From an uncultured Spirochaetota bacterium (GTDB taxonomy: Bacteria > Spirochaetota > Brevinematia > Brevinematales > JAOACQ01), in assembly GCA_963783575.1 (NCBI GenBank), contig CAWAOD010000013.1:32001-96000 (forward strand): a stretch of 64,000 nucleotides of DNA, given 5' to 3'. The position numbers were made by a program. This document shows positions 27,001 through 33,000 of the stretch, piece by piece (position 1 is the stretch's first letter; each line of letters opens with the position of its first letter).

Positions 27001-30000
27001 ATTTATTCTTGAATGGAATGATAAGACTATTTTAAAGAAATACGATATTTTAAGAAGGAAATGCGAATCAGCCTGTTAGTCGGTTTCAATTTATTGTAGC
27101 AAAACTGGTTTGACCGACTAACCGGCTTACCAGCTGAATTCTTGCATAAATTAAACCAGAATTCTAAAATGAAACAATGTCATAAAGAATACAATGTTGT
27201 CATTCTTCGTCCATTCGGCATCCCCGGCTGGAATGATTTTATTAATTGACCGGTTTAAGGAAGAAAATATGGATCAAAAAAAATTCCAGAATGAGAATAA
27301 ACTTCTGGGCATACTTTCACATCAGCTCAAATCACCGATAAATTCCATTGAAAGCATTCTGAAAGTTATAGTTGACGGATTTACCGGTGAAATCGATGAA
27401 AAAACCCTGTATTTCATTCAGAAGGCAATAAACAAGACCACTGATGCCAGAAATATTATCACAGATATGATAAATTATGAAAAATTATCAACAATGAATG
27501 AAATTATAATGGAAGAAATTGAAATAATAAATTTCATTCATTCGCTTTGCAGAAAATATTCTTTCCAGGCATCGGAAAAAAATATCCTGATCTCAACAGG
27601 CATACCTGAAAATATTAATATATATATTCAGGCTGAACCGGTAAGCCTCGGGATAGCTTTCGGCAACCTTATCGATAACGCCATCAAATATACGCCGAAC
27701 AATGGTAAAATAACAATTTCCATACATATTAACCAGGAAGCAAAAAAATGCCTGGTTATGATCTCCGACTCAGGCTATGGGATTAATCAGGAAGACATAC
27801 CAAAAATATTTGACCCTTTTTTCAGATCGCCCGGGCAAAAGTCGGCTATATCCGGAACCGGTTTGGGTTTGTCTATCGTTAAAAAGGTTATTGAAAAGCA
27901 TAATTTTGAGATAACAGTCGAATCAAGGGAAAATGCAGGGACATCATTTACGGTTACAATCCCCGGAATTAAAATCAAGCAGTATAAAAACCACAAAGCC
28001 AGGGACGGTAAAAAGATTGTCATAATCGGCGGAGTAACGGCAGGGCCTAAAGCTGCGGCAAGATTGAGGCGCCTGGACGAGAGCCTGGACATAACCATTA
28101 TTGAAAAAAGCGAATTTCTATCCTATGCCGGCTGCGGATTACCAGCCTTTATCAGCGGTAAAGTAAACTCGCCGAAGGAACTTATGTCGACATCAGATAA
28201 TACATTGAGGGACGTTAATTTTTTCGAATCGATAAAGAACATAAAGGTATTGAATCAGACAGAAGCGATTGAAATAAACAGGGAAAAGAAAACCGTCGGC
28301 ATTAAAGATTTAGTCAATCAGGTTAAGCATGAAGTCGATTACGATATTCTCATACTGGCTACAGGATCATCATGTTTATATCCTGATATACCGGGAATAA
28401 GGCAGGAAGGGATTTATTCCCTGCATAGCATTGAAGAAGCAAAAAAAATAAAAGAGGAACTGCATCAAAAGCGGGCGATGGATATCATAATAATCGGGGG
28501 CGGATTAATAGGCATTGAAGTTGCAGAATCCATTATGCTTACCGGGGCAAGGGTGACAATACTTGAAAAAAGCGATCAGATACTGAGAATTTTCGATAAG
28601 GAAATATCAAAAAAAATCGAACATGAACTCAACAAAAAGGGCATCAAGGTTTACTTAAGTACATTAATAAAAGAAATCCAAAAAACTGAAAAAAATTTTA
28701 TTATAAAAACTGAAGAAAATGATTTTGTCGCAGATATGATAATCCTTGCCTCGGGGGTCAAGCCGAACACGGCCCTAGCTGAAAAATCAGGTCTGGAGCT
28801 GGGACAGTTCGGCGGCCTGAAGATTAATGAGTATTTTCAGACATCCGATAAGAATATCTACGCAATCGGTGACTGCATAGAAAGCTGCAATGTTATATCC
28901 GGAAAACCTATTCTTTGGCCGCTCGGATCGGTATCGACAAAAATGGGAAGGATCGTTGCGGATAATATTTGCGGTAAAAAGGTTAAATTTAAGGGCCATG
29001 CCGCCACAGCGATGTTTAAGCTGTTTGATTTTAATATCGCAAGGACCGGCTTGAGTCTCCAGGATGCTGTGAACAGCGGCTATGATGTCGAATCCATTGT
29101 TGTCAGCGGGCTCGATTGTTCGCATTACTGCGGCGAGGCTCAGGAAATCACATTAAAGCTGCTTGTTGACAGAAAAACAGAAGCGATACTCGGCGCCCAG
29201 GGATATGGAAGGGGCAATATAGTTGAAAGAATTGAAATGCTTGCTTTTGCCGTGACACAGGGCTTGAAATTAAACGATGTTTACCAGGTTGACCTCGGTT
29301 ATTATCCATATTATAACAACCCGATAGATCTGATTCAAACGGCTTGCATAGCTCTTAAAAATAAAATAGACGGCCTGTACAGAACCATAACCTGTGAAAC
29401 GGTTGAAGCTGGCAGGAACGGCTATAAATTCATTGACGTTAGCCCGGCTTCGGAAAACCACATACTTTATATGTCGAACAGCATCAACATACCGCTTGAA
29501 AATATCCGCGAGGAAAAAATACCATATAAGTGTGAAGATCAGATCGTCCTATTCAGCAGAACATCAGCACGGGCTTATGAGGCTTACCGTTATCTTGTAT
29601 CAAAGGGATTTCAAAATATTTTCGTCCTCGAGGGCGGGTATTTGTTTTATAAATAAATTAAATCAAATAATGAAGATCTTTGGGGTTAAATTTGATATCC
29701 GGGGAAAAAATTAGCAGCAAATATTAAGCCGAATATTGAGAAGGAAAAAGCAAATAATTAGATTAAAAGATCTACTTACCGCTTTTCAGAAGAAGATTTG
29801 CCGCACTTGCAAGCCTTTGATTAAAATCCGGACTGAACATATGCCTTTTGGACATAGTTATCAAATACGAAGCCGAAGACTTAGAATTATGCTTTAATAT
29901 GGCAATAAAAAGAGTTTCTGCTATGGTTTCGTCTGTAATCTGGGTTGTTAAATTGTTCAAAGCCGTTAATCCTTCAGGCGATGGATGGATTTCTCCGAGT

Positions 30001-33000
30001 GCCTGTATCAGCGCTTTTTGACCTTCTTTATCGGTAATATCTTTTAAGTAACTGGCAATCTCTATCGCGTCCTGATTGTTGCCGATTTGCCCCATAGTCC
30101 ATACAGATATAAGAAAGATATCTTTCAGTTGATTTATCCTTTTTTTCCCCTGATTGGCGATCGGATTGGACTGCGCCATTAAGCCGAAGATTTCTTGCCT
30201 GGCGTTTGTAAGCTTTAATTCTCCGATTCTTTTGATTCCTCCGTAAACCATATCCAAATCATCGGATATAAAAGACTCCACTATCTGGTCATAATTTGAG
30301 GCATCCATTGACTTAAAATATTCATCATAGGTAGTTATTTTAGAATATGAAGCTGTAACGGCAAAAACCATTATTACCAGGACAGTTATCAAATATTTCA
30401 CACTTGTACTCCTTTATTTAAATTATATTATATTGCTCCAATTAAATGATCCTAATCGATTAAATTCTCAACCCTTTCTATAAATTGCTTGGGCTGAATG
30501 GGTTTGATAACATACTCATCCACTGGAAGCCAGTCCTCATCGCCCGCGGTCGATTTGAAATCTATATTGGTTTCATTATCCACATTCGTGAGCATAAGTA
30601 TTTTTATTTTTTCAAATTTTGCGTTATTTTTCAGTTCCCTAGCCATCTCGAACCCGGCGTTGCTGTTTTCCATCATTACATCCAGTATGACAAGATCGGG
30701 TATAAATTTTTCCAGTACCTGAAAACCTTCTTTCCTGGAACCGGCTTCTTTAATATCATATTTGCCGGAAAATATCACGGTCAATAACTCCCTCTGGTCC
30801 GGATCGTCATCTATGATTAATATTTTTTTCATAATTCCTCCAAAATACTATTCGCATCATTTGAGAATTTTAACCTAAGGACAGGAATTTTGCAAAAAAA
30901 CTCAAAATATTAATTCTCTATTATGCTATATTTTGCATATTTTTTTAGAGTATTCTAAAATAAATCATAGAGTAATATGTTTTGAAGCATAATTTTAAAT
31001 TATACTGCTTAGATTATTTTTGTGGTTAATTTTTAACCGGAATCAAAGAACACAATGATCTACGGTAAAAATTCGGGGGTGGAAAGACCGATTGTTAAAT
31101 GTTAAAATTTATTAAATATGATTGATGATAACCGTTTCCTGAATCGTCATTTCAACATCCATAACCTGAAAAATCAAATCAAATTAAAAAACGCTGAATC
31201 TTTTTCTATAAAAGAAGCATTAATACATATAGAAAGATCGTTTTAATTTTTACAAACCCCGGGGTATAAGTCCTGCCGATCATCTTTTACTTAAAACCGG
31301 CGGGGATACATAAGGATAATTAAATGAAAGAAGCAATGACCATATGTTCGTTTTGCGGCTGCGGATGCAGCATGTATATGGCAAGCGAAGACAATTCCAT
31401 CACTAAAATCATTCCGGCATTGTCAAATCCTGTCAACCGCGGAAGCCTCTGCATAAAAGGCTGGCATATAAGCGAAGCCTATATCAATCAAAATAGAATT
31501 ACAAAGCCTCTGATCAAAACTAACGGAGAATTCAAAGAAGCGGGTTATGATGAAGCATTGAATCTGATTGCCGATAAATTCTCTTTTTATAAGAAATCTC
31601 AGAATTCAATCGGGGTAATCGGCTCCGCTAAAACTACAAACGAAGAGAATTATCTATTAAACCGCCTTGCCCGTCAGGCATTGGAAACAAACTCAATCGA
31701 CAGCTCTTTCACTCTGCACTATCACTCTCTTTTGGAAAATATCAACGGATTAAATCTAACCATCGGCATGGAAGATATCGAAAACGCGGATTTTATCATC
31801 GTTATCGGTTCGAACCTTCATACCGAAGCGCCTCAGGTTATAAAAAAAGTTTTGAAGGCTTCCGATAAAGGCGCGAAAATCGCGGTGATAGGTTTTCTTT
31901 CAGTTCCTCTTGCGGAAGTATCCGATTACTCGATCCCGATTAATCCGGCTGAGATATCTCAATTCCTGCAGAACTTTAAGGATATATTAAATTCCCCCGG
32001 GACGGATAAAGTTTCCGATGATATGATAACAGATATTGCATTGTCATATAAGAAATCGAAAAATCCCGTTGTTATAATCGGCGAAGATGTTTTTAAAAGT
32101 ACCCTTTCGAAACCGGGATTTAAAGTTTTATCTGAAATTTTTCAAGGAAGGATATTTCCGCTTTTTACAATAAACAATATTCTCGGCGCTGTATCTTATG
32201 GAATTTCACCTTATGCTGATAATAAATATTTAGCCGGGAAATGGAATGCAGAACTGCCGGCAGACAGGGGATTGAATATTTTCGAAATGCTTGATGCCTC
32301 CAATAACGGCAGTATGAAATGTATGTATATAGTCGGTGAGGATTTGCTCGCTGATGCCGGGGATTATAGCAGAGTAAAAAAGTCTCTTGAAAATCTTGAA
32401 TTCCTGGTCGTGCAGGATTTATTTATGACAGAAACCGCGAAATTGGCGGATGTCATTCTTCCCGCGGCCGGTTCTCTCGAGAAAAAAGGCACTTTTACAA
32501 ATATGGAAGGAAAACGCCAGCATTTTATGCCCGTTATCGACCCTATCGGCGAATCGAAACCGGATTCGGAAATTTTTATGGAATTATCGGGAAGGTTGGG
32601 AATTAAGCTTCCTTATGGCGATGTAAACGAAATAACCGAAGAAATTAAGGATATTGATTTATTTAAAAATAAAATTTTCATAACCGGAAATATATCCATT
32701 CCTGAGGAAAACACCGGTGATAGTTTTCCCCTGTGGATAAAAGCGGACAATACCCGTCTGAAGTATCATTCCGGAAGCCTGCTTAAAAACTCGTATTTCT
32801 TAGAGCGTGAAATGGAGCCTGCTGCCGTTCTGGTACATCCGGACCAGGCAAAGGCAAACCAGCTTAGAAATAACGAAAAAGTAAAAATTACTACAAAATA
32901 CGGGGAAATATTAAGAAATGTCCTGATATCAAACGATATCCCGAAAGGAAGCATCGTTTTAAGAACAAATATCAGCGATTATTCCCATACCATGGTATTA

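Follow-up and report, generated by a model that had tools for sequence, protein, structure and literature searches.

Flavoenzymes, sensor kinases and Rex in comparison with g03166

In NifL, MmoS and LOV kinases, the redox or photochemical state of a flavin gates the histidine kinase, and the flavin is held by a small PAS fold that precedes the DHp domain. Sensory [FeFe] hydrogenases linked to kinases, which are found at hydrogenase loci, use a catalytic fold as the kinase input. Rex is a one-component DNA-binding Rossmann protein that has no flavin, Cys centre or phosphorelay. According to the accessible part of one study, it senses NADH/NAD+ and regulates genes of fermentation as well as hydrogenase-related ones (PMC6391272).

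We analyzed g03166, a gene encoded in a 64,000-nucleotide stretch of DNA (the window) from an uncultured Spirochaetota bacterium. Starting from the N-terminus, its product consists of DHp (with His18) and CA domains, a linker of 20-21 residues, a complete FAD/NADH flavoprotein of the CoADR/Npsr type and a rhodanese domain. Residues 248-795 match end to end AfNpsr (PDB 6pfz), Shewanella Npsr (3ntd), BaCoADR-RHD (3icr) and EfCoAPR (8a56), with E-values from 1e-111 to 7e-74. The resemblance to Pyrococcus-type reductases noted in an earlier survey of the genome is also evident from the match to P. horikoshii CoADR (4fx9) over residues 248-683 (E 7e-74). The FAD motif, the NADH-type Glu, the flavin-adjacent Cys, the interface domain and the C-terminal rhodanese are shared with the Npsr, CoADR-RHD and CoAPR enzymes, and the lid-like loop 308-314 aligns with residues 60-66 of AfNpsr, which form a lid over CoA in the accessible part of its description. 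Unlike these enzymes, g03166 has a 245-residue histidine-kinase core in front, a rhodanese Cys replaced by Ser, and changes at the consensus residues Ala257, Ala556, Asn557 and Gln559. It also scores below the cut-off of the NCBIfam CoA-disulfide reductase model (387 vs 579 bits).

With HisKA-class kinases (HK853 2c2a, VicK 4i5s, PhoR/WalK/PnpS) g03166 shares the DHp hairpin bearing the His, the N, G1, F and G2 boxes and a nearby gene for a receiver-domain partner. However, it is devoid of an N-terminal sensor, membrane segment and signalling helix, the sole candidate input is C-terminal to the CA domain, and His+1 is Gln rather than Glu/Asp. In contrast to PAS/LOV flavin kinases, the flavin would reside in an enzyme of ~450 residues with two dinucleotide-binding domains and its own NADH site, positioned C-terminal to the kinase. 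Like the sensory [FeFe] hydrogenases, g03166 appears to have recruited a catalytic fold as kinase input and has hydrogenase genes nearby, but FAD and NADH take the place of the H-cluster and H2, and both the fold and the presumed ligand differ. Rex resembles g03166 in proposed function, yet is not homologous to its architecture.

Architecture, distribution and the kinase core

The features of the locus are listed in Table 1. The ATG of g03166 has AAGGAAG 5-11 nt ahead of it; an alternative upstream ATG at 27194 would make the protein longer by 25 aa. The Pfam values given in the survey were reproduced, and its description of a transmitter fused to a full flavoprotein without transmembrane, PAS or GAF regions was confirmed by the Pfam domains and a hydropathy scan. 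The Pfam scan detected neither PAS nor GAF in g03166. Among 19-residue Kyte-Doolittle windows, the mean exceeds 1.6 only at 406-424, a strand of the NADH Rossmann fold, so that g03166 is a soluble protein devoid of a membrane segment. No input domain other than the flavoprotein was found in g03166 or in its large conserved family. In 46 homologues 12-41 residues precede the His, leaving no room for a further sensor, and no longer forms of the fusion were found.

Table 1. Features of the g03166 locus (positions within the window)
Feature	Position	Strand	Evidence and remarks
Kinase-flavoprotein-rhodanese fusion gene (g03166)	27269..29656	+	795 aa, stop codon included
DHp helical hairpin, residues 10-75	27296..27493	+	Pfam HisKA 10-73; AF2 helices 10-35, 44-75
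CA (ATP-binding) domain, residues 82-238	27512..27982	+	HATPase_c 125-232, 2e-28
Kinase-flavoprotein linker, residues 233-248	27965..28012	+	Sequence variable, length fixed
FAD- and NADH-binding domains, residues 249-544	28013..28900	+	Pyr_redox_2 249-544, 3e-64; 6pfz AfNpsr match 1e-111
Ser556-Thr557-Lys558-Met559	28934..28945	+	Takes the place of Ala-Asn-Lys-Gln (stand-alone enzymes, other fused clade)
Dimerisation (interface) domain, residues 583-683	29015..29317	+	Pyr_redox_dim 583-683, 3.9e-12
Rhodanese-homology domain, residues 717-791	29417..29641	+	Rhodanese 717-791, 1.8e-8; aligns with Cys-bearing loop of 6pfz
209-aa protein between kinase and regulator	29772..30401	-	Signal-peptide-like N-terminus
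Single-domain response regulator (g03168), 126 aa	30452..30832	-	Response_reg 1.5e-16; likely partner
Candidate target cluster, divergent from regulator gene	31324..42973	+	Pfam; proximity only

The architecture is recurrent in database clusters, as the survey had stated. Among the clusters listed (at least 120, query included), the proteins are 753-822 aa long and 47-55% identical, and all 120 listed have HATPase_c, Pyr_redox_2, Pyr_redox_dim and Rhodanese. It is likewise present in each of the 78 loci retained from species-representative genomes, which are exclusively MAGs from about eight phyla (79 loci with the window). In 30 relatives belonging to the same order the fusion gene was not detected, and a literature search found no paper describing the kinase-flavoprotein-rhodanese architecture. 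That two adjacent genes were joined artificially by mis-assembly or mis-calling is an explanation of negligible probability, refuted by the one uninterrupted frame together with the same end-to-end architecture in these clusters and the 78 loci, which represent independent assemblies.

The HisKA match is, as the survey had cautioned, below the Pfam cut-off (23.0 vs 26.9 bits). The DHp assignment is nevertheless backed by matches of VicK and HK853 to residues 2-233, by matches of the NCBIfam PnpS/WalK/PhoR models to residues 3-232 and by the two-helix hairpin of the AF2 model. The proposed phospho-accepting His18 (codon 27320-27322) is borne out by the sequence, and it is conserved in all 74 loci having this column (out of the 78 related loci and the window). 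The CA boxes read from the sequence are Asn137, Asp167-x-Gly169-x-Gly171, Phe184 and Gly196-x-Gly198-x-Gly200, and these eight residues are invariant in all 75-76 scorable loci. Judged by sequence, every ATP-binding box and the phospho-acceptor His are present in the kinase core.

The immediate surroundings of the His are less usual. His+1 is Gln19 and His+4 is Ser22; across the loci, Gln follows the His in 66 of 74 and Ser, not Thr/Asn, predominates at His+4, whereas 24 of the 27 aligned kinases of the same genome have Glu or Asp at His+1. In the accessible part of the work by Willett and Kirby (PMC3510030), four HisKA kinases depended on an acidic His+1 residue for their kinase activity. Therefore, g03166 could autophosphorylate poorly or act mostly as a phosphatase. 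The identity of these two residues may also mean that the flavoprotein is not an input at all. The enzyme and the kinase core might share no more than expression or a scaffold, the core being controlled otherwise (for instance by the regulator, another kinase or a cNMP-binding neighbour); alternatively, the His-Gln core might serve mainly as a phosphatase or phosphate sink. Such an arrangement would agree with the cNMP-binding protein gene directly upstream of the fused kinase in nine loci and with other kinases adjoining the fused gene in L037 and L047. We regard it as decidedly unlikely, as the invariant ATP-binding boxes and His in every scorable locus argue for a working phosphoryl site. 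Moreover, the fixed linker length and the remodelled enzyme-invariant residues of the window's clade agree better with a sensor-like module coupled to the kinase than with a free-running enzyme. Pro232 and Gly254 are 20 aa apart in 42 of the 46 homologues aligned (21 aa in g03166), and linker residues 240-245 have pLDDT <50 in the AF2 model.

Divergence of the flavoprotein and rhodanese domains

The active-site Cys, numbered 288 in the survey, is actually Cys289 (LSYAGC289GLP; codon 28133-28135). Both Cys289 and Glu433 (codon 28565-28567) are kept in 76/76 scorable sequences. Glu433 aligns with AfNpsr Glu183, for which section 3.5 of PMC7969121 models ribose-hydroxyl binding and exclusion of NADPH. 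The nucleotide site is thus of the NADH type, which narrows the NAD(P)H redox signal proposed earlier to NADH.

Ser763 (codon AGC, 29555-29557) is found at the catalytic-Cys position of the rhodanese domain. Ser occupies this position in 46/46 sequences of alignment A1 and in 44/44 sequences of the window's clade (group I). In 75 scorable fused genes the position is Ser in 44 (group I), Cys in 28 and Gly in three, so that the Cys-less rhodanese reported by the survey holds for the window's clade but not for other fused clades. The changes characteristic of group I are A257T, A556S, N557T, Q559M and C763S. The Ala, Asn and Gln of Ala-Asn-Lys-Gln are present in 98%, 91% and 61% of 103 stand-alone relatives and in 97-100% of 29 group II fusions, both of which keep the enzyme consensus; the window's residues at these sites are present in 95-100% of the 44 group I sequences. 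The same genome encodes a stand-alone CoADR-RHD paralogue that has retained the rhodanese Cys. In the flavoprotein tree, the fused forms do not represent a single clade. Replacement of near-invariant enzyme residues argues against ordinary persulfide-reductase turnover in group I, and, together with the loss of the rhodanese Cys, makes the module look less like a functional persulfide reductase than like an enzyme-derived sensor. Retention of the rhodanese domain may be due to its being part of the CoA pocket.

These features bear directly on whether the kinase senses sulfane sulfur, the flavoenzyme being turned over or modified by persulfide, polysulfide or CoA-persulfide. The kinase would then report sulfur availability for a switch between H2 evolution and sulfur reduction. 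The closest solved relatives listed above are indeed persulfide/polysulfide reductases, and for the 28 of 75 scorable fused genes that have both the rhodanese Cys and the enzyme consensus this reading is attractive. The accessible parts of two studies also speak for it: in Pyrococcus S0 diverts electrons from H2 to H2S (PMC3341082), and SurR regulates energy-metabolism genes in response to sulfur (PMC12162507). However, turnover of EfCoAPR needs both cysteines according to the accessible part of PMC9405070, and group I has Ser throughout at the second of these positions in addition to the altered Ala-Asn-Lys-Gln motif and Ala257. Furthermore, sulfur-metabolism genes do not recur among the neighbours of the fused kinase loci. 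We therefore consider sulfur sensing possible but rather unlikely.

Genomic neighbourhood and the proposed signalling pathway

The single-domain regulator that the survey had placed about 800 bp away is 796 bp from the kinase stop. Its orthologues (50-59% identical) are convergent with the kinase gene and lie 17-138 bp 3' of it in 18 loci, and 1547 bp in one. More generally, a convergent single-domain regulator is found ≤200 bp from the kinase in 20 of 68 loci having room. The partnership, at first a guess, is thus supported by conserved adjacency in other genomes. The intervening 209-aa protein has no Pfam or NCBIfam match and no homologue in the 78 related loci, and hence is outside the conserved unit. 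HEAT-repeat look-alikes of it in the Atlas provide a lead only.

The cluster divergent from the regulator gene encodes an FdhH-like molybdopterin oxidoreductase, a Fer4_22 protein, a FAD/NAD(P)-binding protein and a group-4-type membrane [NiFe] hydrogenase set. At least two NAD-linked hydrogenase/FDH module families occur ≤8 kb from the kinase in 16 of 79 loci, compared with a background of 1.26% (124 of 9834 grid positions) for the window's own genome; as the control is one genome and the loci are related, a binomial p-value overstates this enrichment. A hydrogenase or FDH neighbour is absent in 63 of 79 loci, many of them on short contigs. Four loci (L043, L047, L057 and L050) have a hoxFUYH-like cluster, including a NuoF-type NADH subunit, between the kinase and a single-domain regulator, and in L065 and L067 an FDH/NuoF-like gene run ends with the regulator. 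L047 also has a divergent [FeFe]-hydrogenase-domain histidine kinase, an example of the sensory type, adjoining the fused kinase. The recurrent NAD-linked neighbours fit the redox part of the survey's finding; its sulfane-sulfur part is made less likely in the window's clade by the replaced residues.

The same neighbours, being O2-sensitive hydrogenases, would suit a sensor of O2 or peroxide, in which an NADH oxidase/peroxidase-like module with Cys-sulfenate chemistry at Cys289 shuts down or protects hydrogenases when an anaerobe meets O2. The module does match the NADH oxidases and peroxidases 6ruz, 1nhp and 2bc0, AfNpsr itself displays NADH oxidase activity (PMC7969121, section 3.1), and L066 has a catalase-peroxidase gene after the kinase. 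Nonetheless, the best matches are CoADR/Npsr and not Nox/Npx, KatG is a neighbour in just 1 of 79 loci, and the sequence has no feature separating O2 from other oxidants. This makes O2 or peroxide sensing very doubtful.

On this comparison, g03166 probably reports the cell redox state, and we see about an even chance that it is a kinase whose flavoenzyme-derived sensor follows the NADH/thiol redox state and which is tied to H2/formate metabolism. It would be the kinase of a cytoplasmic two-component system, with a flavoenzyme recruited as the sensor. FAD would be reduced by NADH, and FAD together with a Cys289 thiol or mixed-disulfide centre would be re-oxidised by an oxidant. The redox or ligand state of the flavoprotein dimer could then alter, through the short-linker tether, the reach of His18 by the two CA domains. 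As the canonical signalling helix N-terminal to DHp is absent, no worked-out precedent was found for such coupling through a CA-side linker. Phosphoryl flow to the 126-aa regulator would track the NADH/NAD+ (thiol) redox poise, and the regulator would act either by contacting other proteins or through a further relay. A Rex-type gene is located 3' of the kinase in L049 (at 262 bp) and L052 (at 694 bp); NADH could already be sensed there by Rex, with the kinase reading something else.

The expected output of redox sensing by g03166 would be control over the disposal of reducing equivalents as H2 or formate, with the neighbouring FDH-like/[NiFe]-hydrogenase cluster as the candidate target in the window. 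If this is true, a kinase with a whole flavoenzyme as its input would represent a mode of redox reporting that has not been described so far.

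The fused kinase and its HisKA-type core

The fused kinase, a 795-residue protein, is encoded by an ORF with AAGGAAG located 5-11 nt upstream of its ATG. The source genome comprises 4.9 Mb in 18 contigs and is 89.85% complete, the window corresponding to C13:32001-96000. The Pfam figures of the survey's finding were reproduced: HATPase_c maps to residues 125-232 (2e-28), Pyr_redox_2 to 249-544 (3e-64), Pyr_redox_dim to 583-683 and Rhodanese to 717-791. Both Pfam and hydropathy analysis agreed with the reported lack of any PAS domain, GAF domain or membrane segment. The HisKA match (residues 10-73) scores 23.0 bits against the Pfam cut-off of 26.9 and had been held in doubt for that reason. 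The match proved to be real, as the DHp assignment is backed by alignment of the kinases VicK (PDB 4i5s) and HK853 (2c2a) with residues 2-233, by NCBIfam kinase models spanning residues 3-232, and by an AlphaFold2 model (mean pLDDT 85, pTM 0.68) in which an alpha/beta CA domain comes after a helical hairpin (10-35 and 44-75).

The DHp H-box is present, with the phospho-acceptor His18 lying within SHQLKSP, and the CA domain has all of the N, G1, F and G2 boxes. Among the 78 related loci and the window, the His is kept in all 74 genes that have this column, and Asn137, Asp167, Gly169, Gly171, Phe184 and Gly196/198/200 are invariant in all 75-76 scorable genes. In 46 aligned homologues, the stretch N-terminal to the His is just 12-41 residues long. 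The linker between Pro232 and Gly254 is equally constrained in length, being 20 residues in 42 of these 46 sequences and 21 in the window.

The residues following the His are unusual. In four HisKA kinases, an acidic residue at His+1 was needed for kinase activity and Thr/Asn at His+4 for phosphatase activity, as reported by Willett and Kirby (PMC3510030). The window has Gln19 and Ser22 at these positions. Of 74 fused loci, 66 have Gln at His+1 (7 have Glu and 1 has Arg), and His+4 is mainly Ser, with Thr in only 3; Glu or Asp occupies His+1 in 24 of 27 aligned kinases of the same genome. Judged by sequence, Gln at His+1 would count against a plain kinase. This bears on a rival reading in which the core acts chiefly as a phosphatase or is under some other form of control; Ser22 likewise differs from the Thr/Asn associated with phosphatase activity. 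With such a His-Gln motif, the core is a putative kinase.

A promoter and terminator scan of 26900-31400 gave counts close to the shuffled expectation. Upstream of the gene there is a perfect 10-bp inverted repeat, GTTAGTCGGT ... ACCGACTAAC, with a 28-nt spacer; it overlaps the stop codon of a U32 peptidase gene and is not followed by a T-run.

The flavoprotein and rhodanese module

The module matches A. fulgidus Npsr (PDB 6pfz) end to end (1e-111 over residues 250-794), the next-best matches being BaCoADR-RHD, Shewanella Npsr and EfCoAPR. It has the FAD and NAD(P)H dinucleotide folds with a redox Cys by the flavin. This Cys, previously numbered 288, is residue 289 when read from the sequence. 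Both Cys289 and Glu433 are present in all 76 scorable sequences (78 loci and the window). The nucleotide site is of the NADH type, because Glu433 lines up with AfNpsr Glu183, which has been modelled to bind the hydroxyls of the NAD ribose and to shut out NADPH (PMC7969121, section 3.5). Residues 308-314 (TSDNTLR) line up with AfNpsr 60-66, the lid over CoA. A rival reading makes the protein an O2 or peroxide sensor.

The rhodanese domain had been described as lacking its catalytic Cys. This holds for the window (Ser763) and for its clade of fused genes, group I (Ser in 44 of 44). It does not extend to the architecture as a whole: with four truncated loci left out, the 75 scorable genes (74 loci and the window) have Ser in 44, Cys in 28 and Gly in 3 cases, and therefore loss of the Cys characterizes the group I clade. 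Four group I loci (L015, L017, L020 and L031) have a Cys directly before the Ser (VLCSKTSS), where most have Tyr, so that their rhodanese-loop Cys is displaced by one position.

These residues are central to another rival, that the protein senses sulfane sulfur. Such a role is more plausible for the Cys-bearing clades; the L057 and L050 proteins are examples of group II members with the Cys. For the window and group I, however, the catalytic Cys is gone, and EfCoAPR requires both of its cysteines, its rhodanese domain forming part of the CoA pocket (PMC9405070).

Group I departs from 103 stand-alone relatives and from 29 fusions of the other fused group (group II) by A257T, A556S, N557T, Q559M and other replacements, all at positions conserved in these two sets. 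Accordingly, the window has Ser556-Thr557-Lys558-Met559 in place of the Ala-Asn-Lys-Gln that follows the GD motif in the enzymes, and Thr257 in place of an Ala of GGxAAG. The portions of PMC7969121 and PMC9405070 that were consulted assign no residue roles to the Ala-Asn-Lys-Gln motif. Taken at sequence level, group I reads as an enzyme turned sensor and group II as having an enzyme-like module.

Distribution and origin of the fusion

Among the clusters listed, at least 120 (query included) have the same domains; these proteins are 753-822 residues long and 47-55% identical. In contigs from one genome per species, relatives are encoded in 449 stretches, and the best 80 of the 449 were kept, yielding 78 loci. 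Their matches begin in the N-terminal kinase core, except for a few at contig ends. According to record titles, all 78 derive from metagenome-assembled genomes (MAGs), assigned to Spirochaetota, Fibrobacterota, Acidobacteriota, Raymondbacteria, Planctomycetota, Krumholzibacteriota, Desulfobacterota and Anaerolineales. When longer forms carrying additional domains were sought, only unrelated hybrid kinases came up (E about 1e-32). The fused gene is absent from 30 relatives of the window's own order (one of the same genus at 57% completeness, 10 of the same family and 19 of the same order), and its distribution is therefore patchy. A stand-alone paralogue is present in one of these 30. The source genome itself encodes a stand-alone CoADR-RHD, 34% identical to the module, which retains the rhodanese Cys (IAVFCRVGQRG).

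In the module tree (FastTree, midpoint root, 186 sequences, four truncated loci left out), stand-alone enzymes separate the fused forms into two groups, a topology that leaves open more than one origin of the fusion. Against the window core, group II kinase cores score 88-120 bits and the best unrelated kinase of the source genome 97.8 bits; by this measure group II cores appear no closer than an unrelated kinase, a comparison that does not settle one versus two fusion origins. The His-Gln H-box common to both groups hints at common ancestry.

In the literature outside subscription journals, covered at the level of listings and abstracts, we found no description of a kinase fused to a CoADR/Npsr-type flavoprotein and a rhodanese domain. 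A 2026 preprint on HisKA profiles makes no mention of oxidoreductase, rhodanese or related terms, and the database names of the fused proteins are automatic. Sensor kinases are a known kind, and it is the input class and topology for which we found no published description.

Genomic neighbourhood and proposed role

Coordinates of features in the window and in related loci
Feature	Location	Strand	Remarks
Carbamoyltransferase, split	21576-23397	+	N-terminal ORF 21576-22628; C-terminal ORF 22660-23397
Inverted repeat	27075-27122
Fused kinase gene	27269-29656	+	795 aa
209-aa protein	29772-30401	-	between kinase and regulator, 50 bp downstream of regulator, same strand
Response regulator	30452-30832	-	126-aa receiver protein
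Hydrogen-metabolism island	31324-47145	+
FdhH-like molybdopterin oxidoreductase, Fer4_22 protein, FAD/NAD-binding protein, group-4-type [NiFe] hydrogenase subunits	31324-42973	+	Pfam
Radical-SAM protein	43554-44612	+
Lyase_1 (aspartase/fumarase-type), two overlapping ORFs	44548-45144, 45141-45635		between radical-SAM protein and HydF
HydF	45928-47145	+
Stand-alone CoADR-RHD paralogue, source genome	C11:182050-183786 (L080 1516-3273)
668-aa protein	L047 5880-7889	-	[FeFe]-hydrogenase large-subunit, Fe-S, HisKA and HATPase_c domains
Rex-type gene	L049 4551-5174		262 bp downstream of fused kinase; Put_DNA-bind_N + CoA_binding
Rex-type gene	L052 11052-11789		694 bp downstream of fused kinase

The single-domain response regulator, the candidate partner, lies 796 bp from the fused kinase, in line with the roughly 800 bp noted in the survey. 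Its close orthologues are 50-59% identical over 122-125 residues and share an unusual conserved insert, NIDFKSxAGDxxWLPVDDY. They are encoded past the kinase gene on the opposite strand; the distance is 17-138 bp in 18 loci and 1547 bp in one. Counting any single-domain regulator (size limit of 170 residues), a convergent one occurs within 200 bp in 20 loci, out of the 68 in which no less than 600 bp is available downstream. A 466-residue neighbour in L037, matched as a receiver by HMM, is a GAF kinase according to Pfam and falls outside these counts by the size limit. The 209-residue protein has a signal-peptide-like N-terminus, matches nothing in Pfam or NCBIfam and is without homologues among the 78 related loci; HEAT-repeat proteins resemble it in the Atlas (score 0.93), which we treat as a lead only.

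The regulator gene is divergent from the FdhH-like/[NiFe] hydrogenase gene set, which is followed by [FeFe]-hydrogenase maturase genes. The Lyase_1 gene within this island is perhaps split by a frameshift. The two carbamoyltransferase ORFs could reflect a frameshift or a pseudogene, or the gene may be genuinely split.

We surveyed the neighbours of 79 loci (78 and the window) over an 8 kb span using HMMs built from recurrent neighbour clusters. At least two hydrogenase/formate dehydrogenase (FDH) module families occur within 8 kb in 16 of the 79 loci (15 of the 57 whose flanks reach 8 kb or more), and the same score is reached at 124 of 9834 grid positions (1.26%) of the source genome; since the loci are related and the control comes from a single genome, this excess represents enrichment and not a probability. 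The gene arrangements themselves are telling. In three loci (L043, L047 and L057), the kinase, NuoF-like, NuoG-like, small and large [NiFe] subunit and single-domain regulator genes follow each other on one strand, with L050 as their mirror image. An FDH/NuoF-like gene run ends with the regulator in L065 and L067. Rex-type genes lie downstream of the kinase in two loci, in one of which (L049) hydrogenase genes come next. L047 also encodes a 668-residue protein, divergent from the fused kinase and adjoining a hox-like cluster, that looks like a hydrogenase-derived sensor kinase.

Two further kinds of neighbour recur. CheA is encoded directly downstream on the same strand (194-438 bp) in L022, L032 and L045, the last also with CheR, Hpt and CheX-like genes, and this sub-clade hints at a link to energy taxis. 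A protein of 167-198 residues consisting of a cNMP-binding domain only is encoded 28-94 bp upstream on the same strand in nine loci (L004, L005, L006, L008, L009, L017, L020, L031 and one more). In some Spirochaetota, this gene, the kinase and the convergent regulator form a three-gene cassette; the cNMP-binding gene is absent from the window.

The best-supported reading of the fused kinase is a cytoplasmic redox sensor kinase, for which we infer signal, coupling and target as follows. NADH would reduce the flavin of the module and an oxidant would reset the FAD/Cys289 centre. The tethered CA domains would be governed by the state of the flavoprotein dimer, which would thereby set how phosphoryl groups flow to the small regulator. 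The output would concern how reducing equivalents are disposed of, as H2 or formate. We consider it possible, though somewhat short of probable, that the family constitutes a new two-component input class. In this class, a complete flavoenzyme of the NADH-dependent disulfide-reductase type, located C-terminal to the kinase core, would serve as a 'trigger enzyme'. It would translate the NADH/NAD+ poise (and sulfane sulfur in Cys-bearing clades) into phosphorylation of a small regulator that controls NAD-linked hydrogenases and formate dehydrogenases, in anaerobes belonging to about eight phyla.

What is understood of how fermenting and syntrophic anaerobes control electron dumping as H2 or formate comes largely from Rex and a small number of H2 sensors. 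Here, a widespread kinase whose sole possible sensor is an NADH flavoenzyme repeatedly adjoins NAD-linked hydrogenase and FDH genes, which makes it a tangible candidate, amenable to purification, for a second route of redox sensing. If the proposal is true, it would be the phosphorelay counterpart of Rex. The resemblance is in function only: Rex combines Put_DNA-bind_N with a CoA_binding (Rossmann) domain, whereas Pfam finds neither in the fused kinase. The family has escaped experimental attention because all 78 related loci come from uncultured genomes. It offers a test case for kinase control from the CA side versus the N-terminal helix and, with catalytic residues kept in some clades and lost in others, for the change from enzyme to sensor.
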